Assembly (NCBI GenBank): GCA_963808135.1
Contig: CAWEFA010000078.1
Coordinates: forward strand, 13,797-77,796
DNA: 64,000 nucleotides
Source: an uncultured Bacteroidota bacterium
GTDB taxonomy: Bacteria; Bacteroidota; Bacteroidia; Bacteroidales; DTGW01
Direction: 5' to 3'
The translations under genes and the position numbers were made by a program. This document shows positions 4,453 through 60,130 of this stretch, in pieces (the first letter of the stretch is position 1; each line of letters starts with the position of its first letter). The notes below the pieces were generated by a model that worked only from the letters and a program-made list of their open reading frames with translations, was not told the DNA's origin and searched no databases.

Positions 4453-4515
4453 AATCAAGGTGCAGAATAAAAATATTTACAAGAACAAATCGGGAAATAA
4501 GCGTAACCTGAATCC

Positions 4516-4549
4516 AAAAAAAAAGTGCCCCGAAAGGCACCTTTTTTTT
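4516..4549 (-). terminator. Rho-independent, probably bidirectional terminator
   Basis: A-tract, GTGCC-CCGAAA-GGCAC stem-loop, T-tract; downstream of the 4582..5364 gene. Confidence 0.75.
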
Positions 4550-4581
4550 CATTTAAAACTAAAAATCTCATCGAAGTTGGA

Positions 4582-5364
4582 TTAACTTGATGGAATATTA
4601 CACCAGAAACGAACGTTGTCGCTTGTATGGCCGCTAAGTTTGCTGTAAGTCCAGTCCATAGCTGATTTCCAACCCATTGCACTGCTTCCGCTGCAACTGC
4701 TGTTGTTACCGTTACGATGAACGTCCCAGTAGCAACTTCCCCAATAGCTCTTGCAAGAACTCCAAACCGATACATCGCTGCTTCCGTTTGTACATTTGTT
4801 CCATAATGCAGAAGTAGAACCCTGGCCAACGCCAGCCATTCTTGCTTCATAGTAATTTAATTTTGTACGGCCTGCGTTGAAAGCATCACCTGATTTACCA
4901 TCACCATAAGAGTAATTGGTATTCATAAGTTCGGTTTCCATCATAGCTGCTGATTCAAAACTTTGGTTATCGCCAACAGCGCCTTTGTTACCACTAAGTC
5001 CGCTAACTGTATAGCAACCGCATGATACGCCGCTTGGGCAACTTACTGAGCCTGGGCAACCGCCTGATGAACTACTTGAACTTGAACTTGAGCTGCTTGA
5101 GCTTGAGCTGCTTCCGCAATAACTGCTTCCACATTGGCTGCTAGCTGCACCTGAACATTTTGTAACACAACTCTGGCTGTTTTCCCAACCCCAGTCACCT
5201 GTTGTTGCATTGCAGCAGAAAGGATAGCTACCGCATGTGCCACAAGATTTCAAACTCGAAGCTGTGGAAACGTTTTCCTTGCTACAACTTACAATCGTAA
5301 CAATCGATCCAATCAATATAACACTTGCAAGGATCGCACTCATTGACAAGAAAAATTTTTTCAT
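4582..5364 (-). CDS. Lipoprotein with CBM10, poly-Ser linker and GH134-like endo-beta-1,4-mannanase domain
   Basis: Lipobox IVSC; CBM10-like YPFCC..WGWENSQSC; long Ser linker; GH134-type motifs YTVSGL, AMMETE-x-YGDGK (Glu and Asp 12 residues apart), HRNG, DNVRFW. Confidence 0.8.
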   Translation of the reverse strand: MKKFFLSMSAILASVILIGSIVTIVSCSKENVSTASSLKSCGTCGSYPFCCNATTGDWGWENSQSCVTKCSGAASSQCGSSYCGSSSSSSSSSSSSSSSSGGCPGSVSCPSGVSCGCYTVSGLSGNKGAVGDNQSFESAAMMETELMNTNYSYGDGKSGDAFNAGRTKLNYYEARMAGVGQGSTSALWNKCTNGSSDVSVWSSCKSYWGSCYWDVHRNGNNSSCSGSSAMGWKSAMDWTYSKLSGHTSDNVRFWCNIPSS

Positions 5365-37569: not shown

Positions 37570-38683
37570 ATGGCCAATAAAAATTATCCGGTAAGCGAGA
37601 CAAACCTAAATGGCAATGAATTAAAATACGTTACAGATGCAGTTTCATCTTCATGGATATCATCGAATGGGAAATATATTGATCTTTTTGAAAATGAATT
37701 TGCCAATTACTTAGGCGTTAAACATGCCATTGCTGTATCTAACGGAACTGTTGCTATTCATCTCGCCTTGCTTGCTCTGAACATTGGGAAAGGGGATGAA
37801 GTAATTGTTCCAAACCTTACTTACATAGCAACAGCAAATGCTGTGAGTTATGTGAATGCAACACCTGTTTTTGCAGATTCAGAAGCCGATACATGGAACA
37901 TTAATCCTGAATGTATTGAAAAACTTATTACGCCTAAAACCAAAGCAATCATTCCGGTGCATTTATATGGCAATCCTTGCAACATGGATAAAATTGCTAC
38001 CATTGCAAAAAACCACAATCTTTACATTATTGAAGATGCTGCAGAAGCTATAGGGAGCCAATATCATGGGAAGAAAACCGGAAGTTTTGGACTTATTTCA
38101 ACCTTTAGTTTTTATGGAAATAAAACCATTACTACCGGAGAAGGCGGTATGGTTGCTACCAACGATGATGAATTGGCATCGAAAATAAGGCTTTTTAAAG
38201 GCCAGGGCATGAGCTTTACCAAACGTTATTGGTTTGATGTAATAGGCTATAATTACAGGATGACGAACATGCAGGCAGCTATCGGCCATGCGCAAATGGA
38301 AAGGATCAACGATTTGGTAAACGCAAAAAGACAAAATGCGCGTCACTATAATCGTTTCTTAAACGACATTGATCAGTCTGGTTTTACCTGTAGAATTACC
38401 TGGTACTATCAATACCTATTGGATGTATTCCATTGTACTTAAAAATAGAACAAGGGAGGAACGCGAACGGTTTGCAAACAGGTTGAAAGAATTTGGAGTT
38501 GATACACGCCCATTTTTTTATCTTATGACCGAGATGCCTCCTTACGTTAACCATAAAAAAGATGCTTGCCCGAATGCCTTTAAACTTGCTCAACAGGGTC
38601 TAAATCTGCCAAGTTCGACATTACTGAAAGAAGAAGATATTCAGTACATTTGTGAAAGTATTAAGAAATGTTTAATCTCGTGA
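37570..38683 (+). CDS. DegT/DnrJ/EryC1/StrS aminotransferase, perosamine synthetase-like (indel near 38373)
   Basis: VHLYG, EDAAEA, SFYGNKTITTGEGG, GYNYRM; C-terminus (GLNLPSS) is in the +1 frame. Confidence 0.9.
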
Positions 38684-41741: not shown

Positions 41742-44700
41742 ATGAAAACAAAAACAACAAACTGTAAATTATTAGCAGTAATTATTTCAGCTTATTTGTT
41801 TTCTATTTGTGGAATAATGCATGCCAAACCATGGAAAGACAGGGTAGTAGATTCTTTGCAGCAATTTGTATTGCCAAGCCAATTTCTCTATGGGGTTAAT
41901 GAATGGGCTATTGGCGATTGTATGTCTGATAATGCCGAGCTTGGAGGCGCCGATCATTACGACCATGAACCCATGCAACAAATGTGTGCTTTCAATATCA
42001 AACCCGCTATGGAACCGGTATTTACATATTACCGATGGAACTATTTTGGTATCGGGCTTTGCAACCAATACCTGAAAAACTTTGGCAATATAAGTTCCCC
42101 TTCAGCGGCTGATAATGTTCAAAAGGGAGAAATACTTTTCCTGAGGGCTTTGTTTTATTTTAACTTAGTAAGGCTTTACGGGGGTGTACCCATTTTTACT
42201 GAAAGTGAACATATCAAAAGTTGATTCACTGAAAAGTACCTATTTCGAGCCTTTGTTTTGGCCTACTATTATTTCCGATACTCTCCATAAATCACGCAAC
42301 TCTGCCTCCGAAGTGTGGGGCATGGTTGAAACTGACCTCAATTCGGCAATTGGGTTACTCCCTTTGCGAAGCCTGATTGCTGAACCAAAGTTCCATATTC
42401 AAAAAGGAGCTGCCCAGGCATTGATTGTAAAAGCTAAAATTTATCAAAAGAAATGGGCCGAAGCGCTTACGTTTGCTGAAGATATTATCAATTCAGGCGA
42501 ATATGCACTTGAACCCAATTTTGCCAACTGTTTTAGCGTAGATACCAAATATGGGGCAGAATCGATATTTGAAATTGTTCGGCCTCCAATTAATGGAATT
42601 GATTATTTTAGAAGCATTTATTGGATTTCAGGGAACCAAAACGTTTATTGCAATCCAAGAAAAATGTGTTTAAGGTTAAAAACACAAGATATAAATATGG
42701 TGGATGGACGTGTTCAGGGTTATGCTAATTATTATGGTTGGGGTTTTAACTGTCCTACCGAAAAATATGTAAATTCATTTACACCGGGCGATCCGCGGTT
42801 AAAGTTAACCATAGCATCTCAAAATGACAGTATTGCTGGGATATTGACCCGGTTATAAATGATACTGTATGGGCATGGATTTTACCGCAAGTACAGTAAG
42901 CAATAGTCCCACAGGTTACAACTCGGCCAAATATATTGTTACCAATATTGACTGGAAAAACGGCGGATCTGATATTTATGACGACATTCAACATTCGGGA
43001 GGAATTAAAAACATACGGGTTATCCGTTATGCCGATGTATTATTGTTCGCGGCTGAAGCGGCTTTTCAAACCGGCGATAGCGTCACGGCGCTTCATTATA
43101 TTAACTTGGTGCGCACCCGTGCGCGGAACAGTGGTAAAACTAATCTTCCGGCCAACCTCGCCACACTTACTTTAGACGATATATATAACGAACGTTCCTG
43201 GGAGCTTGGCTCTGAAGGGCACCGTTATTTTGACCTTATTCGCACCGGCAAGGCATACGAAACATTAAACGGGTTGCATATTAATATGCTGGATACAATT
43301 AAAAATTTTGATTCTACAAAACATTACCTCTTCCCAATTCCTTTACAAGATTTGTTGATAAACAAAGGGGCGCTTTCCCAAAACCCCGGATACGATACAA
43401 CACAATCGAATTGCAACATAACCATTAATCCCTTGTTTGAGCACGATACAATCCTTGCCACAGTTGATACCTCAAAAACTAAAACATTGTCTTTATTACT
43501 AAATGTTTTGTGGAACAATAATTTTAATATAGACAACTTAATAAAAATCTATCTTACGCCTAAGTTCTCAGTTTCATGCAGCAAAGGAAAAATTAATAAT
43601 TGGCACATGGACTACCAAGAATTGGATGGCTATGTGAAAAATTTCCAATTTAATTCCACTTTTAATTATGAATACATGTACACTTCCGACTCCTTAAAAC
43701 TTCCCGTATTTCCGTTTACAGATAATATCATACTACATCTAAATAATTTTATAAAAGAATTTACCGATACTATTACAGTTATAATTAAAGAAAGCAAGAG
43801 GCCCCCTGATTATGATTCCTTAATTATGCCGACTTATGCATATTTTAATGATGCCGGGGTACACGATAAGTTCAATTATTCTTATTCGAAATTTGACAAT
43901 GAAATTTTACTCGATATGTTGACCGATGATGCTGAAAAAGGCAGTGGTTATGCACTTAATGTTAATACCAATTATAATGTTCTAATTGCCAGGAAATGGC
44001 TGAAAAATAAAAGTCTCTTTTTTCAAGATATAAGTTTGTCGCTTGCCGCAATAAAACAAGCAGACAGTACCATAAACCAGATAGAAAAGTACAAGAAAAA
44101 CTTTTCGGCCTACAATTACAACAGGTTAATGGGCGAAGCTAAGTTTATCCGGGGTTATTTTACTTTTTATTTAGCCAAACTTGCCGGTGGATATCCCCAG
44201 GTGATACATAATCCTAATATTAGTCTGATTGATAATTTCTATATTTCGGCAAATACCAACCCACGGGATATTTATAAAGATGTTGAAAACGATTTGAACG
44301 ATGCAATAGAATTATTACCGACAAAAAATGATTTTCTTACAAAGTTTAAAATTAGTCCTAACGGACGGGCTACAAAAGCTGCAGCCCAGTCATTACTTGC
44401 AAAAGTGTATATGATGGAAACCGGCTTTGGCTTTATTGCCGAAAATGATGGATGGAATAATGTTTATAACATTACTTCCGAAATTATTAATTCAGGCCAA
44501 TATACCCTGTTGCCAAACTATGCTATGATTTTTGAACCTGAGGGTGAATTCGGGAGCGAATCTGTTTTCGAAATTTATGCAGATAATTTAAATGAATTTA
44601 ATAAATGGGGAAATATTTCTTCCTTTCTCTGTGGCCCGGTATATTCTTTCAGTGTAGCGGCAAATGTCGCTAAAATTTCTTCTGGTCAGGGGAATGATAT

Positions 44701-45580
44701 TCCTTCCACTAATCTTAACCATGAATTTGAGAACGGCGATCCCCGGAGAAATAATACAATTATCGAGGATTCATCTATTCCTTACACATATCAATATTAC
44801 ATTTGGTCAACCGGATATTATAACCGAAAAGTTCTGACTATTGAACAACCGGATTCGTCCGGTCAAATTAGCCCCAACAAAAACAAACGGCTCATTCGTT
44901 ATGCCGATGTATTGCTTATGAATGCAGAAGCTGCTTTTCACTTAGGCAAAGATGATACTGCCCGGATGAGGGTAAACCAGGTAAGGCAACGCGCACGAAA
45001 CAGCGGCGACCCAAAGGGTTCAATTTATGGTTTGTATTCTTATCCGCCGGTAAACACAAACCCGGCTACTCTACCCGATGTTACAGCCTCAGGTCAAGAC
45101 CTTATGGAAGCAATTAAACACGAACGGCGCGTTGAACTTGCCATGGAAGGCCAACGGTTATGGGACCTATATCGTTGGGGCGAATACGAAGATGCAATAA
45201 AAACATTTGTGCCTGCTGATGCAGTTATGACAGATATTACGGCTGATTCTGTTATCTCAAATTTCAGGCAACACTTATTAAATGGCGTGCCTTCATTGGT
45301 TTATATTTTAACAGGTAAAACTGATATTGTAATAAACAATGCCTTTACTAGCCAAAACAACAAACTTTATTTATATCCAAATCCCGCAAAAAATGAGCTT
45401 AATATTGGCAATTCCACCGGGGATGTTTCGATAAACATTTTTGATGTTACCGGGAAAAAACTACAATCGAAAACTATTAAAAATGCGAAAGTTGATGTCA
45501 GCTCGCTTCAGAAAGGCTTATATTTAATAGACTTGCATGACAATAATGGTACGATATTTTATAAATTCATAAAAGAATAG
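41742..45580 (+). CDS. Tandem SusD-like domains + T9SS type A C-terminal domain (~1,280 aa after repairing indels near 42220 and 42835-42870)
   Basis: Sec/SPI-type signal (MHA|KPW); two SusD C-terminal motif sets (RYADVLL..AEA, ER.WEL/ERRVEL..EG.R..DL); C-terminal LYPNP..DVTGK..LQKGLYLI..KFIKE. Confidence 0.85.
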
Positions 45581-45601
45581 TTTTCTTTAAAATAAAATTG
45601 G

Positions 45602-45643
45602 GAGCAGGTTCCGGGATTATCCGGAAACCTGCTCTTTTTTTTT
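45602..45643 (+). terminator. Rho-independent terminator
   Basis: GAGCAGGTTCCGG..CCGGAAACCTGCTC followed by T9. Confidence 0.85.
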
Positions 45644-45662
45644 CAAAAAAATCATTTTTCCG

Positions 45663-45693
45663 TACGTGTTTTTGATTTGGTATTTGTCATAGG
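45663..45693 (+). promoter_or_regulatory. Putative ECF promoter for fecR-susC-susD
   Basis: TACGTGTTTTTGATTTGGTATTTGTC, identical 26-mer on the minus strand at 54529-54554. Confidence 0.7.
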
Positions 45694-45717
45694 AATTGAG
45701 ATAAAAAATTAAAAAAG

Positions 45718-46671
45718 ATGAAATCAGTAAATATTGAACTTCTTCAAAAATTTCTAAATAATGAAACCGATGATAAAGAGTCGGAAATAGTCATAAACTG
45801 GCTTAAGAAAAACAGGCTTAGCGAACAGGATTTAAAAAAACTCATTGAAATTCCTGAAAGCGTCCGTTTGTTCGAAATGATAGACCCGAAAAAAGATTGG
45901 CCGATAGTCCGAAGAAAATTATTCCCTAAGGAAAGGCAACTAAATGCAAGGTTTATTTTAAGGGTTGCAGCTTCGGTTGCTTTATTGCTGGGTATTTCAG
46001 AATTGCTGTTTCATTGGTACAATACGGCAAAGCAACCAATCGTATATTACAACTATAGCAACAATATAAATATTATAACGCTGCCCGATAGCAGTAATGC
46101 ATACCTGGAAAGAAATACCAAAATAGTTTATTACTCAAGCTATATTAAAAATCGTGAAGTAACGATAGATGGGAAAATATTTTTCGAAGTAAAACGGAAC
46201 GAACAAAAGCCATTTATTATAGCAGCAAAGGAGAGCAGGGTTAAAGTGCTGGGCACTTCATTTTCAGTTAATACGCAACAGAAATATACTGAAGTTATTG
46301 TTAATTCCGGCAAAGTAGCCCTTTATTCCAATGATAAAACAACCGATACGCTTATTCTTATAAAAGGCGACAAAGGCATATTTAGAAATCAGGAACATAG
46401 ATTGGAAAAACTAAAAAATGACGACCTGAATTATATTTCCTGGAAAACCCACGTCCTTACTTTCTGCAACACACCGATGAACCGGGTAATTTCTGATTTA
46501 GAAAGTTATTTCGGAATTAAAATATACCTTGAAAACCCTACGCTTTCGAAGCTTTGTTATACCTCCGGGTTTACCAATCCGTCATTAAAAGAGATTTTAA
46601 ATGAAATGGAACTGGTATTAAACATAAAGTGCGAGAAGAAAAATAACAATTTAATAATTATCAGTAAATGA
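45718..46671 (+). CDS. fecR: FecR-family anti-sigma factor
   Basis: RVAASVALL TM, LPDSS, FFEV, VKVLGTSF, DUF4974-like C-terminus. Confidence 0.9.
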   Translation: MKSVNIELLQKFLNNETDDKESEIVINWLKKNRLSEQDLKKLIEIPESVRLFEMIDPKKDWPIVRRKLFPKERQLNARFILRVAASVALLLGISELLFHWYNTAKQPIVYYNYSNNINIITLPDSSNAYLERNTKIVYYSSYIKNREVTIDGKIFFEVKRNEQKPFIIAAKESRVKVLGTSFSVNTQQKYTEVIVNSGKVALYSNDKTTDTLILIKGDKGIFRNQEHRLEKLKNDDLNYISWKTHVLTFCNTPMNRVISDLESYFGIKIYLENPTLSKLCYTSGFTNPSLKEILNEMELVLNIKCEKKNNNLIIISK

Positions 46672-49600
46672 GAATTTTTATACTTTTTATCTTCAGCTTT
46701 TTTATATTGCCAATTTACGCCCAAGTCTTTAGAAGACAAGAAAATTGTACTTCCTAATGACAATATTTCTATTGATAGTGTTTTCATCCTTTTGAAAGAA
46801 AAACATGACATTGTTTTTTCATACAACAGCTCGATCATAAAAAATAAAAAATTAAGGTTTAACAAAACAACCGTAACGGTTCTTGAAATCATCAAAAATG
46901 TTGCCGATGAATCCGGTTTAGATTATAAAATACAAGGCAATAAAGTAATTTTTTTTTCAAAAAAACAAAAATTCGTAATTAACGGGTCTGTTAAAGACGC
47001 TGAAACAGGCATAACATTGCCGGATGCAAATATTGCCGTAAAAGATTATAATTATAATACAATAACCGGGGCCGATGGCAATTATAAAATAATCCTCGAT
47101 CCGGGGTATTATACAATTGTTTTCAGTTTTATCGGGTTTAAAACAGAAAAAAAGGAAATTGAACTTAATAGTAATCTCGAAATAAATATTTCATTAGACG
47201 TGGAAATTAACTCTTTAGAAGAAGTTAAAGTAACCAAACAGCGGAACTTCTGGGGTAATATGAATATTGGGCGTAATATGAGTTCAATTGACTCAAAAAA
47301 GATAGAATTGCTGAATACCAATAATGCTGCCGATATTTTACAGGCAAGAATTGCCGGGGTATGGAGCTCTCAAACATCAGGCGCTCCCGGCGATCATCAG
47401 AAAATACTTGTCAGGGGGCTAAGTTCGCTTTATAGTTGCAGCGATCCGTTATATATTATTGATGGAGTGGCAGTCCCGTATCGTTAACCTTCATTCGCTG
47501 GGTATCGGCGATTTGAATGTGCATGATATTGAAAAGGTGACCGTTCTTAAAGATGCTGCTTCCACAGCGTTATACGGGTACCAGGGGGCAAACGGCGTTA
47601 TTATCATTGACACAAAACGTAAAAATGAAGAACATATTTCTTTTTCAATAAAAACCGGCGTTCAGTCCCTTCATAAGCGGTACGATTTAATGAATACAAA
47701 AGATTTTCTTTCAACTCTCGATGAAGCAAAAACCAGGATGACTCCTAATATTAGGAAGTTTTATCCCTTCTACACTGATTCATTGGCAAACACAAATTGG
47801 CAGAATGTTCTTTTTAGAGATGGAATTTCAAACGAATACCAACTTTCCGGTTCAGGGTCGGTGGGTAATACCAATTTCTATTTATCCGGTAATTATTATT
47901 CCCAACAGGGTATAATTGCCAATTCAGGTTATAAGAGATATTCAGTAAGCGCTAATTTCGGTAAAAACATTACAAAAAAAATATCAGTTGAATTTAATTA
48001 CAGGGGCAACATCCAGAAAAATAGCAATAACCTCGACCTCTATCTGGGAAATAACTTGATTGTTTTTGGTATAAATAAATCGCCCTGTTTGAAAGGCACT
48101 CCCGCTATATTTTACAGACAAAGTCGTAGTAACGATTTACCTGCTGTAAGAACATTTTATAATTATACTAATCCAAATTCAAATAGTTTATACCAGCATT
48201 TCGGCGATAGTATAACTACTGATTCCTTAATTAAAAGTAATATAAATACGCTTGATGCTTTAACAAACTCATTCAGTCTTACTGCAAAGTATTTCGTATC
48301 CAATAATATTTACTTCAATGCATCTTCCTCGGTTTCCTTAAGAGATAACCAATATATTTCAAATACGCCTGACAACTATATCAAAAGCATTGAACATTAT
48401 ATCCTGTTAAATCAGCAGTTAAATATTAATTATTCTAAAAGTATAAACGACCATGAATTCTTATTTGTAATGGGTTACAGAAATTATGCCGATAATGCAA
48501 ACTGGAACCTGGAATTCAATACGAAACAGGAATTATACTAATCTTCTGAAAAGCTCCCTGGCCTTTAATGGCGATAATGGCTCAATAACACGTATGATCC
48601 AATCGTTTGCAACACACATGAACTACAATTATAAAAAGAAATATTTTGTGTCATTCATTGTTAATCATGAGAATCTTAGAGTTAATAATCTTGTAAATAT
48701 TAGCGATTGGTTTCCTTCAGTAGCGTTAAGCTGGGATATTTCAAGAGAAACCGTGCTAAGTCAACTCAATTGGCTGAATCAATGCAGCCTGTTTGCCAAC
48801 TGGGGGATAGCTGGAAATTATCCCGTAAATGCCGTAGCAGGCGATTTTTATACAAATTATCAATATTACTTTCCCGATTCTGTTTATTCCGGCAAGACGG
48901 TTTCGCAATTTGCCAACCACTATCTGAAAAGTGAAAAATCCGATGAATATAATGTGGGAAATACTTTGCGATTATTCAATAATAAAATTTCATTGTCTAC
49001 AGATTACTATTATAAAATAAACAAAAATCTTATTATAATGCAGGATATCCCATATTATTACGAAGGCGGTAAAATGATGCTCAATATTGGGAAAATCCTT
49101 AACAAAGGATATGAATTCAATCTTGAACTTGAACCTGTTAACACAACAAATTTTATTTGGAATTCTGCTTTTATTGTTTCATTTAGTCAACAAAAAGTCA
49201 CTAGTGTTGGTGACCAAAAGCAACTTATATTTTACAGTAACGATGATTTAGTTCCTGAATTTATTATAAATGAGAATGAAGCAGCAGGAAATATAATCGG
49301 TTACAAATATTTGGGAATCTGGACAAGCAAAGATAATAATACAAATAATAAGCATATCATTCAACACTTGGGTAGCAAATTTTTTAAGAATGATACAACC
49401 ACAAATTATCTTAACGATAATGACAGGGTGATTCTCGGGAAATCGATGCCCGATTGCACATGGAGCTGGTCGAATACATTCGTGTATAAAAATTTCTCAA
49501 TTTATTTCCTGTGGTACGGAGTTGCAGGAGTCAGCAAATTCAATTCAACAAAAGCTGCTACATATATGGCTTGTACAAACAGGGGAATTAATAATTTTAT

Positions 49601-49907
49601 ACTACAAGCAAACAGAAAGGCTTTAGAAGATACTTTTTTTTACCAATCTTCTTATTTTGTTGAAAACTCCAGCTTTATCAGGCTTAAACAAATAACTTTC
49701 TCATATCTTATTCCAAAAAAAGTCATCAAGTATGGTGAATTAAAACTTTCAGTAAGTTTCGAAAATTTCTTAACTTTTACCCGCTATTCCGGCTACGACC
49801 CGGAAGCCAGCATATATACCGATAACAGTTTCTCGGACTTTGCGGTCGACCGGGGCGCTTACCCCAACACAAGGGCTGTTTATTTTACTATTAAATTTGA
49901 AATGTAA
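46668..49907 (+). CDS. susC: SusC/RagA TonB-dependent transducer with N-terminal STN extension (three apparent +1 indels near 46728, 47480, 48513)
   Basis: PLYIIDGV, LKDAASTALYG..GANGVIII, YSGYDPE, DRGAYP; starts with ATGA overlap at the fecR stop. Confidence 0.9.
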
Positions 49908-49920
49908 AAAAATGATATTT

Positions 49921-50113
49921 AATGTGAGTTCAACGTAATATGAATGTAGAAGTATTGAAAATGTTGATAGTAGCATTCCCCCTTGGTGAAGGGGGCTGGG
50001 GGATTGATGGTTTTTCCTAACTTTTAAAAATAATTCAATCCCCCAGCCCCCTTTTCAAAGGGGGATTAGCATAGTTCTTTTATTTACAATTAATTATGTA
50101 TCGAACTCATGTT
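49921..50113. repeat. REP/MITE-like element between susC and susD
   Basis: Terminal IRs AATGTGAGTTCAAC / ATCGAACTCATGTT enclosing inverted GAAGGGGGCTGGGGGATTGA / TCAATCCCCCAGCCCCCTTT arms. Confidence 0.75.
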
Positions 50114-50136
50114 GTTTAAATTTAAAAATTATAATT

Positions 50137-51717
50137 ATGAAACGTATGTATATTTTCTGTATCCTGTTTCTTCTTTTTAACTGCAAAAAAATATTTAAAG
50201 AAGATATACAAAATTCCTTTTCTTTAAAAACAACAGATGATTATAATGTTGCCATGACCGGTTTATATAACAGACTGTTTAATGGTGTTATGGCAAGCCC
50301 ATTATTTTATATTTATTCAATAGGAAATGAAGATGATTTGGGTGTTTTTAATGGGTCAATCAATTTTGAACCAGATAGCCCTTGCATTGCTTGTATTTAT
50401 AATTTAAATAATTATATCTATGTTTATAGTGGGTGTGGTATTAGTGTGTATGAACCGGAAAATCATGATTTTACTGAACCTTATAAGTATTTATTTCAAG
50501 CTATTGCATGCGCCAATAATATATTATCAAAAGCAGGGGATATTGGAAAGCTTCCCGAAGTTTATAAAAATTATATAGGAGAAGTATATTTTATAAGGGC
50601 ATATTGCTATTTCAGGCTTGTCAGAAATTATGGCCAGATACCGATTGTAGACAACCCTGATGTTAATTACACATTAAAAAAACCATCCTTTAGTGAAATA
50701 TATAATTTTATAATCAGCGATTTGCAAAAAGCTTACAATTTACTGCCTAATTCTAACAGTGAGGCAAGAATAAAATATGTAACGCCGCATCGTGGTTCCG
50801 CCAAAGCGTTGCTTGCCGAAGTTTACCTGACAATGGGCGGATATCCTGTTTATGATGCCAAAAAATATAACGATGCTGCAAAAATTGCAGGCGAGGTGAT
50901 TGATAGCGCTGCATATTTTGGATTTGGCCTAATGCCCGATTTAGCCGATTTATGGAACGGAAATAATGTAATGAATAGCGAAACGGTATTTTCATTTTAT
51001 TTTCTACCAACTTCCAAAAATGTAGGTGGAGGGGCTTATAATAGTGATGAAAATTTTTTTACTAACCAGTATGGTTGGAATCAATGGATTGGTTATCGTG
51101 TTCCTGCAGACTTTTATAATTCTTTTCCGAAAAGCTATAGAAAAGAAGCTACTTTCCAAACCCGAGGTTTTAAACATTGGCCATTTGATATGACGATTGC
51201 TCATTTGGATTCAATAACTTATTGTCGCATGATGTTCTATAAAAAATTTTATACTCAATTTTACATGAATGATGATGAATTAAGATTATTATCTTCTGGA
51301 ACCCTTCCAAGCTATAACGGTCATATTGTTTATCTTTTACGTTATGTACAAACATTGTTAACTTTCGCAGAAGCGAAGGCACGGTCAGGGGTAGTTGACA
51401 AAACCGCTTACGATGCGGTTAACCAGGTGCGCCGCAGGGCCAATAAAGCAGACTTGTTTTCACCTTCGCCTTATGACCTTACTCCCGGGCTTACACCACA
51501 ACAATTTGCCGATTCGGTAGTACAGGAGCGCGCATGGGAGTTATGCGCCGAACCCGAAGGCCGTTGGTACGATATTGTAAGGCTCAATTTGGTAAAAAGT
51601 TTGCCGAAAATTAAGCAAAAACAAGGCATAATAGTATATCCCATCATAATAGATACAACAACCTACTTTATCCCGATTCCTAAATTAGATAAAACAGTTA
51701 ATCCGAACCTGGAGTAA
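50137..51717 (+). CDS. susD: Canonical SusD/RagB lipoprotein
   Basis: Cys after short hydrophobic signal (LFNC); GEVYFIRAYCYF, AKALLAEVYL, ERAWELCAE, IPIP. Confidence 0.9.
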   Translation: MKRMYIFCILFLLFNCKKIFKEDIQNSFSLKTTDDYNVAMTGLYNRLFNGVMASPLFYIYSIGNEDDLGVFNGSINFEPDSPCIACIYNLNNYIYVYSGCGISVYEPENHDFTEPYKYLFQAIACANNILSKAGDIGKLPEVYKNYIGEVYFIRAYCYFRLVRNYGQIPIVDNPDVNYTLKKPSFSEIYNFIISDLQKAYNLLPNSNSEARIKYVTPHRGSAKALLAEVYLTMGGYPVYDAKKYNDAAKIAGEVIDSAAYFGFGLMPDLADLWNGNNVMNSETVFSFYFLPTSKNVGGGAYNSDENFFTNQYGWNQWIGYRVPADFYNSFPKSYRKEATFQTRGFKHWPFDMTIAHLDSITYCRMMFYKKFYTQFYMNDDELRLLSSGTLPSYNGHIVYLLRYVQTLLTFAEAKARSGVVDKTAYDAVNQVRRRANKADLFSPSPYDLTPGLTPQQFADSVVQERAWELCAEPEGRWYDIVRLNLVKSLPKIKQKQGIIVYPIIIDTTTYFIPIPKLDKTVNPNLE

Positions 51718-52187
51718 AAATCAAGATAATTCACACAAACATTACAATAAAACGGCTATTTAATTGCAAGCGTTTGCCGCCTATCAAAAGAGTTTCCTTC
51801 TTTCTTATTATTTCCTTTGATTGTTATTTTATTGTACTGACTTAGTTTCAGAATTGACCCAGTCATTTTGAATTCGGCCGGGTAATTTAGCAAAAACTAT
51901 ATAGAATCTAAAATGTAATTACACATAAATTCGTTAGGTTTTCATAATCTATCTGAAATAAATGTGTAATTAGTTTTCAAACTTTTTAAACTTTTTTACA
52001 GAAAGGTTCAAAAAGTTATAGGAAAATAATTGAAAGTATTTTTTAACGGTACGGCTTTGGCCAGTATCTGTTTCAGGACACTGACCAAAACTTCCGTTCT
52101 AAACTTTGATGAATGTACAAAATTTCGCATACCTCCTAACTCGCTATTGGCTGAAGCTATTGTTGGACACCGTGCCTTTTTAAAAAA

Positions 52188-54440
52188 TTATTTCTTAAAA
52201 ATCTTCTGAAAATATACACCCCGGCTGTTGCTAACCTCAATTAAATATAAACCAGGATTCATTTGCCCAAGATAAACCTGCCCGTTTGCATGGCTTACCG
52301 AAAGCACTTGCTTTCCTGTAAGGTCAAATACATTTGCCCACTCATCGCCATCGGCATTGGCTATGTATATGATGTTACCTGTTGGGTTAGGATAAAGGTA
52401 CTTACCGGATGGCTTGCTATTGTTGATTTCCTTAACCGAAACGACTTTCTTTGGCATAAATACAAGCTTAAAGGTATCGGTAATTGTATCCTGGTAGTCG
52501 TGCACATGCACAATAAGTTTATCAGTAAACGGGAAAGCCGGCCAACGATCTCCGTTTTGGGGGCTGTATTTATATTGAAGATAGTAAATTACAGGAAATA
52601 TATTAGGTTTATACTCGTCATTTTCATTTACCGTATTTACAAATTCAGTTATGTTGCCATAAACTGTTTCAACACTAATCGTGGGGACTATCCTGTATTG
52701 GTAGCATGAATCGAGGTTGAAGTAATTACTAAAAGATATAGTATTGGTTAACCCGCAATATTTCTTAGAGGTTGTGTCGATAATAGTAGTGAAAGTCCTG
52801 CCATTTTTAGTTTTGGTAATTTCAGGCAAAGTGAATTCATAACCAGGATTTTGGGTTAACATGCCCTTATTGCGCAAGATATCAAGATAAGGTATTGGGA
52901 AAAGATAATTCTTTGCCGTGTCGAACTTTCTTTTTTCCTTCCAAGTATAGTTGTAAAGTCCGTTTAAAACCGAGTCGGCTTTTCTGGTCCTGATAAGGTC
53001 GAAATAACGCTGGCCCTCGGTGGCAAATTCCCAGCAACGTTCATTGAGGATAGCGTTGTATGTAATTGAGGTTAAATTGGCCGGCGCACCCGCTGTGCCA
53101 TTATTCCTGGCGCGTGTACGCACCTGGTTAATATAGCCCAGCGCAGTGGCCGTATCCCCGGTATTTAAGGCTGCTTCAGCGGCCATCAGCAATACATCGG
53201 CATAGCGGAATATTACAATATCTTTGATTCCACCCGAATGTTGAATTGGTCTGGGAGTTTTTATTACCGACAAACGCCAATCATAAGGTGTTACAAAGTA
53301 TTTTCGCGGATAATATCCTGTGGGGCTTGGGGGATAACCCTCGTTGAGAAAAGTATCTTTAGGGAGTGCAATGCCAAGAAGATTTGTTTCCCACTTGAAT
53401 GTATCACCTTCTGCCAATACACTCAATTTGAGCCGTGGATCGCCGGTGGCAAATGATTTCACGTATCTCTCCGTTGGGCAATTTGAACCCCAGCCGTAAT
53501 AATTTTCTGTTTCAAATTTTCCATTAGCTTTAGTCTGATGCAACATATTTCTAATCGACAGGAAAACATTGTGGTTAGCGGCAATCCAATAATCTTGCAG
53601 ATCTTGTACCCATGCATATATAGGCGGCTGGTATAGCTCAAAAATGGTTTCCTTACCATACTTATTATTTGTAAAGAAAATAGTATCAAATTTGTTTTCC
53701 AATACATATTCGCCCGATTGGATAATGGTTTCGGCCAGAGTCAATGCCTCTTCCCATTGTTGCCGGTAAATTTTTATTTTCAGCAACAATGTTTGTGCGG
53801 CGCCCTTCGTTATTTTGTCAATCAGGCTTTCGGTGATCTGGCTCCTGAGAGGCAACTGTACTATTGCAGCGTTAAGGTCGCTTTCAATGTGGTTATAGAT
53901 ACTGTCGGCGTTTACTCTCGGCTTATGAAGGGTGTCGGATTGTATAACAGGCATCCATACCGACGGTCTCAATGATTTAATAGAATCAACATTCACGATA
54001 TTGTCTTCGCTAAACCAGGGTACACCGCCATACAGGCGAACGAGGTTAAAATACATAAGCGACCGCAAAAATAATACGGTGGCTTTTTGTTGCGCACCGG
54101 GCGCATTTGTTTTGGCCACCGCGAGGTATTGGTTGCAAAGGCCAATGCCAAAATAGTTCCAATGGTAATAGTTCCTTACCGGGTTCATCCATGATTTGAT
54201 ATTGCCGCGCATTATTTCTTCTAAATCGTCGCCATCACCAGAGGAGCCACCAGGGCCCTCGGCAATATCAGAACAGGCATCGCCAATGCTCCATTCATTT
54301 GCTCCGTATAAGTGCTCGCTGGGCAGCACATAGCGGAAAATTGAGTCAACAACCCTGTTATTCCAGGGTTTTCCTTGCAATTCTGATGAACACAAAGCCA
54401 TTATCACTGCAATTAATAAAGTGTAATGTTGGTTTTTCAT
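52188..54440 (-). CDS. SusD-like domain + T9SS type A C-terminal domain
   Basis: Intact 750-aa ORF; signal ending LQG|KPW; FLRSLMYFNLVRLYGGVP, RYADVLLMAAEA, ERCWEFATEGQRYFDL, QNPGY; C-terminal YLYPNP..FDLTGK..PGLYLI..KIFKK. Confidence 0.9.
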   Translation of the reverse strand: MKNQHYTLLIAVIMALCSSELQGKPWNNRVVDSIFRYVLPSEHLYGANEWSIGDACSDIAEGPGGSSGDGDDLEEIMRGNIKSWMNPVRNYYHWNYFGIGLCNQYLAVAKTNAPGAQQKATVLFLRSLMYFNLVRLYGGVPWFSEDNIVNVDSIKSLRPSVWMPVIQSDTLHKPRVNADSIYNHIESDLNAAIVQLPLRSQITESLIDKITKGAAQTLLLKIKIYRQQWEEALTLAETIIQSGEYVLENKFDTIFFTNNKYGKETIFELYQPPIYAWVQDLQDYWIAANHNVFLSIRNMLHQTKANGKFETENYYGWGSNCPTERYVKSFATGDPRLKLSVLAEGDTFKWETNLLGIALPKDTFLNEGYPPSPTGYYPRKYFVTPYDWRLSVIKTPRPIQHSGGIKDIVIFRYADVLLMAAEAALNTGDTATALGYINQVRTRARNNGTAGAPANLTSITYNAILNERCWEFATEGQRYFDLIRTRKADSVLNGLYNYTWKEKRKFDTAKNYLFPIPYLDILRNKGMLTQNPGYEFTLPEITKTKNGRTFTTIIDTTSKKYCGLTNTISFSNYFNLDSCYQYRIVPTISVETVYGNITEFVNTVNENDEYKPNIFPVIYYLQYKYSPQNGDRWPAFPFTDKLIVHVHDYQDTITDTFKLVFMPKKVVSVKEINNSKPSGKYLYPNPTGNIIYIANADGDEWANVFDLTGKQVLSVSHANGQVYLGQMNPGLYLIEVSNSRGVYFQKIFKK

Positions 54441-54523
54441 TTTTAAATATTTAATTATTTTAAACCATTTAAATTTCCCAAATAAATACTAATGCAATTA
54501 TCATGGCTAAAAGTATTTTTAAA

Positions 54524-54554
54524 CCTAAGACAAATACCAAATCAAAAACACGTA
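54524..54554 (-). promoter_or_regulatory. Putative ECF promoter for the SusD-CTD gene
   Basis: Reverse complement of the motif upstream of fecR. Confidence 0.7.
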
Positions 54555-54948
54555 TAGAAAAATTATTTTTTTTAAAAAAAATAATTAATTAAATTTTTAA
54601 TTCCGAACCTAATACCGATTTGCGTTCAAAATTACAATTTCACTGCTCCCGATTTTTTCAGGATTGTGAAATTGTTTTGAACGTCAATCGGCATTTACGA
54701 ATCTAAACAATCAAATGCGATGTTATCTTTTTGATTGCAGATTGGTATAAAATCATTGCTTCAAATTACCTTAAACCTGAATTTTTTGATTAACTTTTAA
54801 CTTGAGTTTTGATGATTGATTAATTTTGAAAATTCTTTTTTAGGATACAGATAATTATTTAAGTGCTCATAATAAAACCAATAGGTTGAAAATAAACTTT
54901 TTTAATAATATTCTAAATTGCCATTAGAAAATAAGATGAGGTTGATCT

Positions 54949-55491
54949 ATGGAAAGTAGTTTATTAAAAGGGATAAAGAATGGCGATGAATTGGCGTATA
55001 ATACAATTTTTAATCAATACTATGCTTTATTAACTTCGTTTGCTTTTAAGTATTTGAAAGATTTGGATGCTTCAAAAGAAATTGCCCAAAACACTTTTGT
55101 GAAATTATTTGAAAAGAGGGATTCAATTGAAATTACTACCAGCTTAAAATCATATTTATATAAAATTGTCCATAACTCCTGCATTAATTATATTAAAAGC
55201 AGGGCAATTGAAGCAAAACATTATTCCGCATTAGCTGGCGAAGTTGAAAATACTTCGGACTTTAATCGGTTCATTGAACAAACCGAAGAAGAATACAGAA
55301 TTTATAAAGCCATTGACCAACTGCCGGGAAAATGTAAATTGATTTTTAAACTCAGCCGTTTCGAAGGCAGGAAAAACAAGGATATTGCCGATGAACTGAA
55401 TATCTCGGTACGAACTGTTGAAACTCAAATTTCCAAAGCGATAAAAATCCTGAAATTGAATTTGAAATTTATCGTTTCAATTTTATTTTAA
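54949..55491 (+). CDS. ECF sigma-70 factor, Bacteroidota SusC/D-associated expansion type
   Basis: SLKSYLY..VHNSCIN, LPGKCKLIFKLSRFEG, IADELNISVRTVETQI. Confidence 0.93.
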   Translation: MESSLLKGIKNGDELAYNTIFNQYYALLTSFAFKYLKDLDASKEIAQNTFVKLFEKRDSIEITTSLKSYLYKIVHNSCINYIKSRAIEAKHYSALAGEVENTSDFNRFIEQTEEEYRIYKAIDQLPGKCKLIFKLSRFEGRKNKDIADELNISVRTVETQISKAIKILKLNLKFIVSILF

Positions 55492-56500
55492 ATCTGCTTT
55501 AGTAGTTTGATTATTAATGTTGATTTTCCTTCAATTGATTGGTATTTGCTAAAGCGTTCCACACCTGCGCTTACATATCGTTTGTACCAATAATAATGGA
55601 AACCCTTTGATGAAATTAAAAAGACAGAAACCCGAAGAAAATCCCAAGCTTCTGTCTTAACTGCAAATGTTATTTGGTTATCTTATTACTTCTTCTCAAA
55701 CTTAAACGAACTCTGATTGTTGTTGTCGGTTATCTTTGTGATATATATACCGCTTGCCAGCTGGCTGACATCAATCGAATTTTCCGAGGTATATTTATCA
55801 ATCATCAGTTGACCGGTAATGGAATATATCGAAATTTTTGCACTACCGGTAAGATTTTTAATGTGCAAAATATCTTCAACCGGATCGGGATAAATATTCA
55901 AAGGTTCGCTTGATAGCTCATCAATTTTTGTTTCCTTTTCAGTTATAGGAGCATTAGCTGCTGAAAATTCCGCACCGGCATCCTGGGTAACAATTATAGT
56001 ATTATCTGCAACACCAGTTGCCGATACCGTAACAGTTGCTGTTTGAGTTGTAGCGCCTGGATTGGCCGCTGCTGTTAAAGTGATGGTGGCATTACCAGAA
56101 CCTGCATTAACGCTTGAGGTAAGCCATATTTGATCGATAGCTATCGTCCACGAAGTGTTAGAGGTAATATTGAAAGTTGAAGTACTGTTAGCCGCAGCTG
56201 CTATTTCCAGCGTACTTGCAGATAAACTTAATGTAGCTGCAGCAGCCTGGGTAACATTAATGGTTTTTAGTAACGTGCCATTATCTGAAACGGTTATTGT
56301 TGCAGTTCTGTTTGCAATAGTTGTATTAGCCGTTGCTGTTAAGGTTACGAATGCATTGCCATTACCGGAAGCGGAACTCAGGGTTAACCATGGCTGGTTA
56401 CAGGTTATTGTCCATGATGTGTTAGAAGTAACCTTAACACAAGCAGTACTGTTAGCTGCAGCGCTAATATACAAACCACCTATGGATAATGTAGGTGGTC

Positions 56501-57701
56501 CTTACATTCAAGTTTCTAATGCAACTATTCAGTTTATATTTTTCAATTTAAAGATAATTACTTTTTTTCTTCGGGCAACATGCCATTGAAATATTAATAA
56601 CTCTATGTATTATAATATTTTAAAGGTAGAGTTATTAACATTTCAACAGCACATAACCATCATCATCTACAGTTTTTCAAAATATAGTTTTCAAAAACCT
56701 CTTTTGGTGTTTGCCAATTCAATACTTTTCGTGGGCGATTGTTAAGCAAATCCTGCACTTGCTGTATCTTTCCTGATGGTATTTCATTGAAGTCTGTTCC
56801 TTTTGGAAAGAAATCCCTAATCAGCATATTGGTGTTTTCATTGGTGCCTCGTTGCCAAGGACTATACGGACTTGCAAAGAATACTTTGATTTGTGTTTCT
56901 TTGGTAAACAATTTATGCTGGGCCATCTCAAACCCATTATCATGCGTTGTGCTCAAACGCATCTGTTCCGGCAGGGTAAGCATTTTCTCTGCAAATGCCC
57001 TGCGTACGGTAGGTGCGCTCCTGTCTTTTAACTTTACCAATAACGTAGTCCGTGTGGTTCGTTCTACTATGGACCCAATAGCACTTTTACCATCTTTCCC
57101 AATGATTAAATCGCTTTCCCAATGACCTGGAATCAACCGATCCTCTACCTCAGGTGGTCGCTCTGATATATCTATCCTGTCGGGTATCCTGCTTCGAAGT
57201 AGACCTCTACTCTCAGGCTTCCTCCTTTGGCCCTTTTGCTGTCGCAAATAGCTTATCAATTCCTTACGAAGCTCTTTCTTTGCCCATAGGTAGATGTATG
57301 TGTAGATGCTTTCGTGTAACACGTGATATCGCTTATTATGTTTATAAACTTGTCTTAATCGTTTTGATATTCGTTCAGGTGACCAATGTTGCTTGAGATG
57401 AAGTATTATCTTGTATTCAAGCAAAGGGTCTTTCTGTATCTTGCTCCCTTTGTGTTTTATTTTATTACCCTGAGTAGCATTCAACTGAGCTAATTCCGAA
57501 CGATATATCAAACCGCTATTACGCTCTATTTCACGATTTATTGTACTCCTCGGTCGGTTAAGTGTCAGGGCTATTTCTGACCGCTTTTTACCTTGACTTA
57601 GTAATAACTCAATTTTTACTCTTTCTTCATAACTAATTCTTGTGTATCCATTCATAGTGCAACTTTTTAGAATAAAGTTGCATTAGATATTTGAACTCAA
57701 G
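56501..57701 (-). mobile_element. IS30-family insertion sequence, 1201 bp, 3-bp target duplication GTC
   Basis: 26-bp imperfect IRs CTTACATTCAAGTTTCTAATGCAACT / AGTTGCATTAGATATTTGAACTCAAG; GTC at 56498-56500 and 57702-57704. Confidence 0.93.
56663..57655 (-). CDS. IS30-family transposase
   Basis: GHWESDLI, DNGFEM, PWQRGTNENTN, LNNRPRK. Confidence 0.95.
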   Translation of the reverse strand: MNGYTRISYEERVKIELLLSQGKKRSEIALTLNRPRSTINREIERNSGLIYRSELAQLNATQGNKIKHKGSKIQKDPLLEYKIILHLKQHWSPERISKRLRQVYKHNKRYHVLHESIYTYIYLWAKKELRKELISYLRQQKGQRRKPESRGLLRSRIPDRIDISERPPEVEDRLIPGHWESDLIIGKDGKSAIGSIVERTTRTTLLVKLKDRSAPTVRRAFAEKMLTLPEQMRLSTTHDNGFEMAQHKLFTKETQIKVFFASPYSPWQRGTNENTNMLIRDFFPKGTDFNEIPSGKIQQVQDLLNNRPRKVLNWQTPKEVFENYILKNCR

Positions 57702-59314
57702 GTCCTGCATCCTGTGTAACAGTAACGGTTACAGGTATTACCCCGAGTCCTGAAAAGGTTACGGTAGCTGTTCTGGGCTCAATAGTCGGGTTGGCTGTTG
57801 CTGATAAAGTTACGGTAGCATTGTTCAGGCCTCTGGCGGGGACTACGGTTAACCATGTTTGATTGCTCGAAGCTGCCCAATTGATATTGGAAGATACGGT
57901 AACTGTATTCTTATTGGCAATTGGCGGAATATCCAGCGAAGTGGGGGAAACATTTAAATACGGGGCATCCTGAACAACAATAACAGTTACCGGCGCTACC
58001 CCGGCTCCTGAAACGGTTACGTTAGCTGTTCTGGTGGCGCTGGCAGGATTGGCTGTTGCCGAAAGTAATGGTAGCATTACCCGAGCCTTTGGCGGCGCTT
58101 ACGGTTAGCCAGCTTTGGTTGCTCGAAACTGTCCAACTGACATTGGAGGTTATGGTAATTGTATTTTTGCTGGCAATAGGTGGAATATCGAATGAGGTTG
58201 GAGAAACATTTAAAAATGGCGCATCTCCTCCTGTCGTGGTTTTTAGAATCCTACCGTTAAAACCAACAGCATACCCTGTATTGGCATTGGTAAAAAAAAC
58301 AGAAAATAAATCTTGTGTTCCGTTTGTTTCATTTTCTTGATAAAACCAAGTAATTCCTCCATCGGTAGTTTGTAATATTGCTCCGTTCATACCAACAGTG
58401 TGCCCTGTATTGGCATCGGTGAATTGAACTGAACATAATTGTGGTATTCCACTTGTTTGTTTAGTCCAGGTAGTTCCTCCATCGGTTGTTTTTTTAATTA
58501 CATTAAGACCAACAGCGTATCCTGTATTGGCATCAGTGAAATAAACTGAAGTTATGCCAGTACCAACATCGTTTTTTTGTATTTGCCAATCAGTTCCAGC
58601 ATCGGTTGTTTTACAAAATAAATTACTTCCTGGCACTTCAAAATAGACACCAACAGCATATCCCGTATTGGCATCGGTAAAAAATATTGAAGTAAACTCA
58701 TAATCAGAATTAAAATTATTTGCAGGCGTCCAAGAAGAACCTCCATTAATTGTTTTTAAAATTAAACCTCTACCAACAGCATAACCATTATTGGCATCAG
58801 TAAAACAAATAGAGAATAAACTATTAATTGTACCACTTGTTAAAACTATCCAAGTAGTCCCGCCATTGGTTGTTTTTAAAATTGTTCCATTGGCACCATC
58901 CACATAACCTATATTGACATTAGTGAAAAAAACCGATCTTAAATCATTAGTTGTACCGCTTTTTAGTGAAGTCCAAGTGGTTCCGCCATTGGTTGTTTTT
59001 AAAATTGTTCCATTGGCACCAACCACCCAGCCAATATTGGCATTAATGAAATAAACCGAATACAATGAATTAGTTGTACCACTGGTTTGAGCAGTCCATC
59101 CGGAAGGTTGGGCAACTGCCTTCAACATATTATGCGGATTGCTGGTTTGAGCATGTACAAATATGCTGCAAAGGGCTATAAAACGGATAATAGTAAAAAA
59201 TTTTTTCATTTTAGTTTTGTATTAAATTATTAAATAAGGCATGTTTAACTATCAGGTATATAATTTCCGTAAAATGCAATATTAAAAATTATTTTTATTT
59301 CATTTCAAATTTTA

Positions 59315-60130
59315 GGTCATGGGTTAAAACGGCTGATTACTCCGTTTCCATATGTGCCACTTCTGTAATAATGCCTTTCTATGTACATTCCTATAACATT
59401 GTCATGAATGTCGGTATCTCTGGAATAACAGATGGTTTTTCGGTTTAGCCTTTTTATGTGTGTCCTAAAGTTTAGGTTTTTCCTTTCGATTTTCCAAGTC
59501 TGATCCTTGCCAATTACATGTTTATCTTCCGGCAGTAAGCTTGAATAAGCGCCCCAATCATCTGTATAGTAACGATTGATTGGGATATTGGACAAATAGC
59601 CTAATAGCGTTCTAAAATCTTCGTTTGTCCTTTTGCCATTGTGCCAGGCAAGTATTAACCCTGATTTCTTATCCATCGCATACCAAGTCCACCGCTGATT
59701 CCTTTTGTTCGCCACAAAACTCCAAAACTCATCCATTTCTGCTGTATAATATATAACAACATCAAGCCTTTCGAGCTGATTGGCCTCTATCATGTCAAGT
59801 ACGTATGGGTTTGTTTGTGGCGTTTTTTTTTAGCACCGACATCACGGTGTTTTTATTGATTTGTAATGTTCTGCTTATATCTCGGACTCCGCTACTATTC
59901 ATCGTAAGTTCGATTATTTGTTCTTTAATGCCTGGTTTTCGTGCATTGTACTTAAATTCATACTGGAAATATTTCTTGCATTTATTACAATGCCAACGCT
60001 GTGTTCCATTTCTATGACCGTTCTTTACTAAATCATCGTTATTGCAATTTGGACATGTTATGATATTGAAGTGCTTCATTGATGAGTTTTTCACAAATAT
60101 ACATCATTTCAGCCTATTTAACCCATGACC
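59315..60130 (-). mobile_element. IS1-family insertion sequence, 816 bp, 8-bp target duplication AAATTTTA
   Basis: IRs GGTCATGGGTTAAA / TTTAACCCATGACC; TSD at 59307-59314 and 60131-60138; insA (zinc finger + HTH) and insB (DEFWSFV, TDDW, IERKN) joined by an A-run slippery site near 59822-59832. Confidence 0.92.

Follow-up and report, generated by a model that had tools for sequence, protein, structure and literature searches.

A SusC/SusD locus of an uncultured Bacteroidales bacterium is flanked by genes for SusD-like proteins with a type IX secretion sorting domain

Introduction

SusD is the textbook surface lipoprotein that forms the lid of the SusC transporter, and models of SusCD uptake assume that this protein is held by a lipid anchor. 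Here, a locus of an uncultured bacterium of the order Bacteroidales is described in which two genes, termed gene A and gene B, encode SusD-like proteins that end in a type A C-terminal sorting domain (CTD) of type IX secretion systems (T9SS). The locus occupies positions 41742-55491 of a stretch of 64,000 nucleotides (the window; contig C78:13797-77796, i.e. CAWEFA010000078.1 of assembly GCA_963808135.1, such that a window position is the C78 coordinate minus 13796) and contains, in this order, gene A (+), fecR, susC, susD, gene B (-) and a gene for an extracytoplasmic function (ECF) sigma factor. The source assembly comprises 3.50 Mb in 159 contigs, with a completeness of 86% and a contamination of 4.4%. 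A preliminary description of this DNA, made from the sequence alone, had proposed that the two flanking proteins are exported, non-lipidated ligand scavengers that feed the enclosed SusC/SusD pair.

Several described systems resemble this locus in part. Ordinary SusD/RagB lipoproteins (PF07980 and PF14322) have the same domains and fold as the products of genes A and B and are likewise encoded beside susC, but they differ in having a conserved lipobox Cys, in lacking a CTD or linker and in the position of their genes directly after susC; gene A differs further in encoding a tandem of two SusD modules. Surface glycan-binding proteins (SGBPs; i.e. SusE/F and SGBP-B) provide additional capture of substrate at the surface for SusCD systems, the role that is proposed here for the products of genes A and B, and sometimes contain tandem binding modules. 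These proteins are, however, lipoproteins with immunoglobulin (Ig)-like folds or folds like those of carbohydrate-binding modules (CBMs), whereas the products of genes A and B combine a SusD fold with a T9SS tag. A TonB-dependent transporter can also be fed by a soluble or vesicle-borne binder, as by hemophores and by released lipoprotein scavengers. The role proposed for the products of genes A and B resembles these in the idea of a binder feeding a transporter, but the proteins differ from them in both fold and export route. In other Bacteroidota, type A cargo is established to have its sorting domain recognised by the T9SS and removed by PorU, after which the protein is either covalently bound to lipopolysaccharide (LPS) of the surface or released.

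T9SS-linked carbohydrate-active enzymes (CAZymes) have been described (PMC5831590), and the mannan polysaccharide utilisation locus (PUL) of B. salyersiae encodes T9SS-tagged mannan-binding proteins and enzymes (bioRxiv 10.1101/2022.07.15.500217). A signal for signal peptidase I (SPI) and a TIGR04183 domain are found there on proteins encoded next to SusC/SusD, comparable to the SPI-like signals and TIGR04183 domains of the present locus; the tagged binders of that PUL are Big_2-type multidomain proteins, whereas the present locus has the tag on a SusD. The same preprint places a 76-80 kDa SusD-like protein of B. salyersiae in the vesicle fraction, and the available part of its text does not mention a sorting domain for this protein. 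A search of the literature yielded no account of a SusD that bears such a sorting domain, although the supplementary cargo lists of these two sources (i.e. PMC5831590 and the B. salyersiae preprint) might include such proteins. The preliminary remark that no described system with this architecture was known to its author agrees with this search but has to be qualified, as public databases already contain the architecture, filed plainly as SusD/RagB.

Results

The domain content of genes A and B was examined with Pfam and TIGR04183 profiles. Gene B (i.e. protein P0001), which is intact, matched SusD-like_3 with 51.1 bits and SusD_RagB with 139.7 bits, whilst the last open reading frame (ORF) of gene A gave 47.7 and 227.4 bits for the same families, all above the cut-offs. 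Por_Secre_tail was also present in gene B. TIGR04183 was matched at the extreme C-terminus of both proteins, with 39.8 bits for gene B (residues 682-750 of 750) and 49.5 bits for the last ORF of gene A (residues 835-903 of 903) against a cut-off of 23. The SusD-fold domains and type A CTDs that the preliminary description had assigned to both genes were thereby confirmed.

A structural model of gene B was generated with AlphaFold2 (AF2) from an alignment of 116 sequences and reached a pLDDT of 81.9 and a pTM of 0.80, superseding a run with a 9-sequence alignment (pLDDT 42.9). The SusD part was helical and confidently modelled, as was the sorting domain, and residues 540-680 formed a beta-sandwich of moderate confidence. 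The top Foldseek matches of this model were 7kv3, 7kv4 and 6gcz (i.e. laminarin-binding SGBP-A or SusD-like proteins), with an E-value of 5.7e-22, target TM-scores of 0.79-0.81 and identities of 22-23%. Gene B has, according to the model and these matches, the all-helical, TPR-containing fold of SusD, and a search of the ESM Atlas returned plain SusD clusters only (score 0.82). The beta-sandwich matched no Pfam family and is found again in gene A, between its two SusD modules, a placement that identifies it as a linker and the architecture of gene B as SusD-linker-CTD.

Gene A had been described as one open frame from 41742 to 45580, a reading that did not survive. The gene is spread over three ORFs (41742-42224, 42184-42858 and 42869-45580) and encodes two SusD modules. 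A tblastn comparison with P0002, a paralog of 1278 aa whose intact gene lies on contig C96 of this genome, resolved gene A into four collinear segments (41742-42209, 42181-42834, 42837-42872 and 42884-45577), the frame changing at three points (near 42200, 42835 and 42875). The last ORF (903 aa) contains, by Pfam, the tail of one SusD module, a full second module and Por_Secre_tail. The double module and the linker between its halves indicate an architecture of SusD-linker-SusD-CTD for both gene A and P0002.

The signal peptides of genes A and B are hydrophobic, end in MHA↓K and LQG↓K (arrows mark presumed cleavage sites) and are followed by a mature start, KPW..RVVDS, that is also present in P0002. 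Lipidation signals of relatives were scored with a heuristic that requires a Cys at positions 13-39 which follows a hydrophobic heptamer and has a small -1 residue. Among the top 120 matches of a word-index search, a lipobox was detected in none of the 20 proteins with PF18962 (18 with complete and 2 with truncated N-termini) and in 95 of the 100 proteins without this domain; the five misses were three truncated N-termini, one lipobox overlooked by the heuristic and one 'partial' record. An exhaustive HMMER search provided 142 further representatives, for which C-terminal sorting domains were called by a custom hidden Markov model (HMM). No lipobox was present in 21 of the 22 representatives with a sorting domain (one of the 22 being an ORF piece of the window itself), the exception being the ambiguous P0138, and one was present in 101 of the 120 without a sorting domain. 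Combining both searches, a lipobox accompanied the sorting domain in 1/42 proteins (the ambiguous case) as compared to 196/220 of those without a sorting domain. Por_Secre_tail was confirmed by Pfam in all nine long representatives scanned. A SusD-like lipoprotein encoded on contig C145 of the same genome exhibits 51% identity to module 2 of P0002 and has a classic lipobox but no sorting domain. This mutual exclusion indicates that the sorting domain is an alternative to the lipid anchor and, judging by their sequence features, the products of genes A and B very probably leave the cell via the T9SS in an unlipidated form. The C145 protein (661 aa; G000:C145:40164-42149, i.e. L002:8164-10149, minus strand; G000 denotes the present genome) is an orphan with a weak FN3-like N-terminal domain, and its gene adjoins dnaB with no susC nearby.

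The T9SS genes on which the preliminary proposal depended are present in the genome. Components SprA, GldK, GldM, GldN, PorU and PorV were found, together with 82 matches to Por_Secre_tail. GldK, GldN and PorV are encoded in single frames and the other three are in pieces, SprA being represented only by its two ends, each on another contig. The split genes porU (three frames at the N-terminus) and gldM (two frames) are located at G000:C7:316-3631 and G000:C78:9019-10645, respectively.

The diversity of the tagged proteins was assessed from the exhaustive HMMER search, which yielded 9726 matches at E<=0.001 and 118 at E<=1e-30. About a sixth of the best 150 matches contained a sorting domain, indicating a diverse class. 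Architectures of relatives include SusD-CTD (~570-635 aa), SusD-linker-CTD and multidomain proteins of 1100-1470 aa, the additional domains of the large proteins being SprB repeats, Big_7, Big_12, CBM9 or DUF5018. A FastTree phylogeny was constructed for 248 SusD domains, of which 39 were accompanied by a sorting domain; rows with <380 profile positions and the three broken pieces of the window were left out. The sorting domain changed state 6 times on this tree, whereas 300 shuffles of its state gave 36.8 changes on average and never fewer than 32, indicating a small number of lineages and not sporadic fusions. One clade (SH-like support 87) contained the proteins of the window, P0002-P0010, P0032, P0122 and P0129. 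Two SusD-CTD proteins of ~995 aa, P0013 and P0017, are both reported from one metagenome contig of 13,871 bases, showing that paired SusD-CTD genes occur elsewhere as well.

The architecture of a SusD with a sorting domain is rare in species-representative genomes. Searching 40 relatives, including members of the same genus, with P0001 gave matches that, outside G000, stopped by residue 583 of 750. Profile A2 was applied to 400 genomes of the phylum (two candidates scored in each) and, among the matches listed, none outside G000 extended to the profile end. A search of 250 genomes of the order with P0022 (five scored in each) produced 10 matches, all of which end at residues 537-543 of 626. 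Across 122 SusD ORFs in 119 loci, a sorting domain was present in two ORFs from this genome and in one fragment. Scans of genome contigs gave no match with P0001 and at least 80 loci of ordinary SusD with A2, and a metagenome scan with alignment A1 gave 26 loci, the architecture being present only in L014 (a 2.2-kb fragment).

The genes between and beside genes A and B were identified with Pfam and TIGR02985 (Table 1), and the earlier placement of fecR, susC and susD between the two genes, with an ECF sigma factor alongside, was borne out. The resident susD matched SusD-like_3 (E 4e-23) and SusD_RagB (E 1.3e-15). This lipidated SusD fills the partner slot just after susC, and neither gene A, which precedes fecR, nor gene B, which is convergent and follows susD, is in that slot. 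The gene order fecR-susC(STN)-susD of the preliminary description was correct, but susC is divided into three ORFs (46792-47487, 47459-48541 and 48486-49907) and the STN domain is a weak match (E 0.006) whose 16.8 bits lie below the cut-off of 28.4. These pieces cover positions 2-162, 167-503 and 519-980 of TIGR04056, and hence jointly form one complete SusC; Pfam plug and CarboxypepD_reg domains were found within them. A likely signal peptide (MRIFILFIFSFFILPIYA↓Q) starts with ATG 46668, which overlaps with the stop codon of fecR, and is in a frame that differs from those of the three ORFs. This frame reaches a stop after 29 codons and the STN-like extension carries on in the next frame. The three frame changes of susC are therefore near 46725, at ~47478 and between 48491 and 48543. 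A Pfam scan of 41742-55491 detected neither CAZyme nor peptidase families, as the preliminary description had stated.

Table 1. Features of the locus and of the remainder of the window (window positions)
Feature	Position	Strand	Remarks
Gene A	41742-45580	+	tandem double SusD-like protein with T9SS type A CTD; four frame segments
Gene A, signal peptide	~41742-41825	+	mature start KPWKDRVVDS
Gene A, SusD module 1	up to ~43436	+	
Gene A, beta-rich linker	~43437-43886	+	
Gene A, SusD module 2	~43887-45310	+	
Gene A, CTD	45371-45577	+	
fecR-type anti-sigma factor	45718-46671	+	Pfam FecR E 1.7e-14, FecR_C E 9e-12
susC	46668-49907	+	SusC/RagA-type TonB-dependent transporter with N-terminal STN-like extension; three frame changes
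Canonical susD	50137-51717	+	526 aa; lipoprotein signal LFLLFNC|KK (lipobox LFNC)
Gene B (P0001)	52188-54440	-	intact, 750 aa
Gene B, signal peptide	54440-54372	-	mature start KPWNNRVVDS
Gene B, SusD domain	54371-52836	-	
Gene B, beta-sandwich linker	52835-52398	-	
Gene B, T9SS type A CTD	52397-52191	-	
Bacteroidota-type ECF sigma factor	54949-55491	+	TIGR02985 162.5 bits (cut-off 126.4); Sigma70_r2, Sigma70_r4_2
Neighbouring T9SS cargo gene	55686-59209	-	Ycf48-like BNR beta-propeller, several BACON domains, CTD (Pfam)
IS1-family element	59317-60094	-	InsA and InsB frames; at least 5 genome copies
Further IS30-like copy	~63066-64000		at window end
DegT/DnrJ aminotransferase	37570-38683	+	in glycosyltransferase cluster; two overlapping frames, Pfam positions 5-260 then 273-359
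GH134-family (beta-mannanase-type) gene	4455-5364	-	overlapping second ORF at its end, possibly a frame change

Linkage of tagged SusD genes to susC was examined in this and other genomes. There are three SusD-CTD genes in the present genome, two of which flank one of its ~9 SusC loci. The expectation that homologs would also be linked to susC/susD was supported by a distant relative but not by the intact paralog P0002 (see Discussion). The relative is P0032, which has 30% identity to gene B, is entered at NCBI as a RagB/SusD protein from Plebeiibacterium marinum and was found at 100% identity in genome G519, where it is the sole SusD-CTD among 13 SusD matches. The gene is convergent and lies 3.1 kb past a SusC/SusD cluster (AraC regulator; DUF5050 beta-propeller with CTD; SusC; lipidated SusD; lipoprotein; Met-zincin). 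The parallel between these two loci from one protein clade is notable, as each combines SusC and a lipidated SusD with a convergent SusD-CTD and a neighbouring beta-propeller-CTD gene.

The beta-propeller-BACON gene beside the present locus encodes a further T9SS cargo protein, with PDB sequence matches to Ycf48 and a TIGR04183 score of 49.3 bits. The gene is interrupted by an IS30-like insertion sequence (IS) element at ~56500-57700, and its frame also changes near 58022-58077. The G+C content is ~0.40 at 52001-54000 (i.e. gene B) and 56001-58000 (i.e. the IS30-like element) as compared to ~0.30-0.37 in most other 2-kb bins, and this rise may hint at a foreign origin.

Discussion

We consider it somewhat more probable than its opposite that the products of genes A and B are accessory binders, displayed or released by the T9SS, that serve the adjacent, putatively ECF-sigma/FecR-controlled SusCD importer. 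The lipid anchor of an ordinary SusD would, in these proteins, be replaced by a Sec/signal peptidase I signal and a type A sorting domain. As suggested by these sequence features, the proteins would be exported by Sec and cleaved by signal peptidase I; the T9SS would then recognise the sorting domain and carry them across the outer membrane, where PorU would cut off the sorting domain before attachment to LPS or release. Fold and gene order suggest that, at the surface or outside the cell, the SusD module or modules would capture a polymeric ligand, most likely a glycan, and that this ligand would be supplied to the adjacent SusC, which has its own lipidated lid and is presumably under ECF-sigma/FecR control. 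The beta-sandwich linker may act as a spacer. Such a role would be comparable to that of SGBPs, and a function as binding modules is suggested by the addition of CBM9, Big_12, SprB repeats or DUF5018 in relatives and by the presence of two SusD modules in gene A and P0002.

The preliminary description had suggested that the ligand may not be a polysaccharide. No positive support for this suggestion was obtained, and the best structural matches of gene B are beta-glucan-binding SusD-like proteins. Further pointers on this question are the CBM9 and Ig-like fusions in relatives and the BACON domains in the next gene. A beta-glucan ligand is a weak lead from the Foldseek matches to the model, and the Met-zincin at the G519 locus keeps a peptide ligand open.

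A number of observations weigh against accessory binders that serve this importer. Both signals contain a Cys near their end (FSIC|G and MALC|S), with I or L as the -1 residue. P0002 and its close family lack this Cys or have it at another position, and cleavage there is presumed at A↓K, S↓Q or A↓Q. Of the SPI-type signals without a lipobox in the preliminary description, the hydrophobic signal and the common mature start are secure, whilst the missing lipobox, given the Cys in both signals, rests on the atypical -1 residue and the lack of conservation in relatives. The possibility that both proteins are lipoproteins that also bear a sorting domain was rejected because the Cys is not conserved in the close family. 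No susC was present near P0002, either in 12.5 kb upstream or in the ~0.8 kb downstream to the contig end, the neighbours being an asparagine synthase, an oxidase and transposases; linkage is therefore not obligatory, and the evidence for it consists of two independent genomic contexts only. The ECF sigma factor gene is not adjacent to fecR but 8.3 kb distant, no clear common promoter motif was found upstream of gene A, gene B and P0002, and no RNA runs containing the stretch are listed among the sequencing runs. Gene B has merely 26% identity to the resident susD, indicating that it is not a recent copy of that gene. Finally, the assembled sequences of gene A and susC contain frameshifts, such that the system may be dead in this organism.

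Part of this evidence would also be expected of free-standing T9SS adhesins or polymer binders that reuse the SusD fold and have no tie to SusCD, with a gene order that is historical or due to local rearrangement. An intact P0002 without a nearby susC, relatives in the form of large T9SS proteins with several domains (SprB repeats, Ig-like domains or CBM9), the richness of the region in IS elements and the separation of the sigma factor from fecR are all consistent with such adhesins. This explanation is nevertheless unlikely, as two of the three copies flank one SusCD, the distant relative P0032 again lies beside a SusCD and the chance of two genes being located within 6 kb of one of ~9 SusC loci in 3.5 Mb is, by rough arithmetic, <1 in 1000.

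The frame changes could alternatively mark the locus as a decaying remnant, composed of two pseudogenes (gene A and susC) and of leftovers (gene B, susD, fecR and the sigma factor gene). Three frame changes are present in each of gene A and susC, a single frame is kept by only one of the ~9 SusC loci of the genome and overlapping-frame ORF pairs occur at 89 per Mb here as compared to 35 per Mb for low-GC control loci of other genomes (n=22). Moreover, IS30-like elements (at least 15 near-identical full-length copies of 99.4-99.8% identity) and IS1-like elements (at least 5) are expanding in this genome, one IS30-like copy having split the neighbouring gene. Splits of the same style are, however, found in porU and gldM, although these are needed for the 82 T9SS cargo proteins, and in degT, pointing to consensus errors; rpoB is intact. 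The near-identical IS copies are located inside contigs, which suggests a long-read assembly, probably one prone to indels. An independent contig of 151 bases from run X1 (depth 2) was one base short at 47478, a susC junction, and, if this weak evidence is correct, both susC pieces are in the same frame and that frame change is gone. Run X1 (DNA) contained 10% of the sampled words at a depth of 2-3 and spanned one of the six frame-change sites, and X2 and X3 contained next to nothing. We consider decay an improbable explanation. A second broken pair was observed at G000:C118:6640-11749 (L003), with susC in three pieces, including one in-frame TAG, and susD in two pieces; a protein of 640 aa that bears a T9SS sorting domain is encoded ahead of this pair.

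We attach a similarly low probability to the proposal that these proteins represent an old, distinct SusD lineage which, after export by the T9SS and either set free or kept on a long tether, captures substrate away from the transporter and docks on SusC to deliver it (i.e. a 'glycophore' mode of TonB-dependent uptake), the tandem forms being multivalent collectors. That the proteins are true alternative SusC lids delivered by the T9SS, replacing or alternating with the lipidated SusD and, if released, acting as hemophore-like shuttles, is very doubtful, as the retention of the full SusD fold (target TM-score ~0.8 to SusC-capping SusD-like proteins) and the adjacency to susC in two genomes are set against a lipidated SusD already directly after susC in both loci, the poor fit of a tandem double SusD as a lid and the low identity of gene B to the resident SusD.

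If the proteins of this locus were merely adhesins built on a SusD module, the point would be a smaller one of domain reuse. The near-perfect exclusion between lipid anchor and T9SS tag suggests that the SusD fold can work from another attachment or from none, and a single protein here joins two hallmarks of the Bacteroidota surface, i.e. Sus-type uptake and type IX secretion. P0032, with its Plebeiibacterium marinum name, would provide a test case in a culturable organism for whether a SusCD is fed by exported binders.

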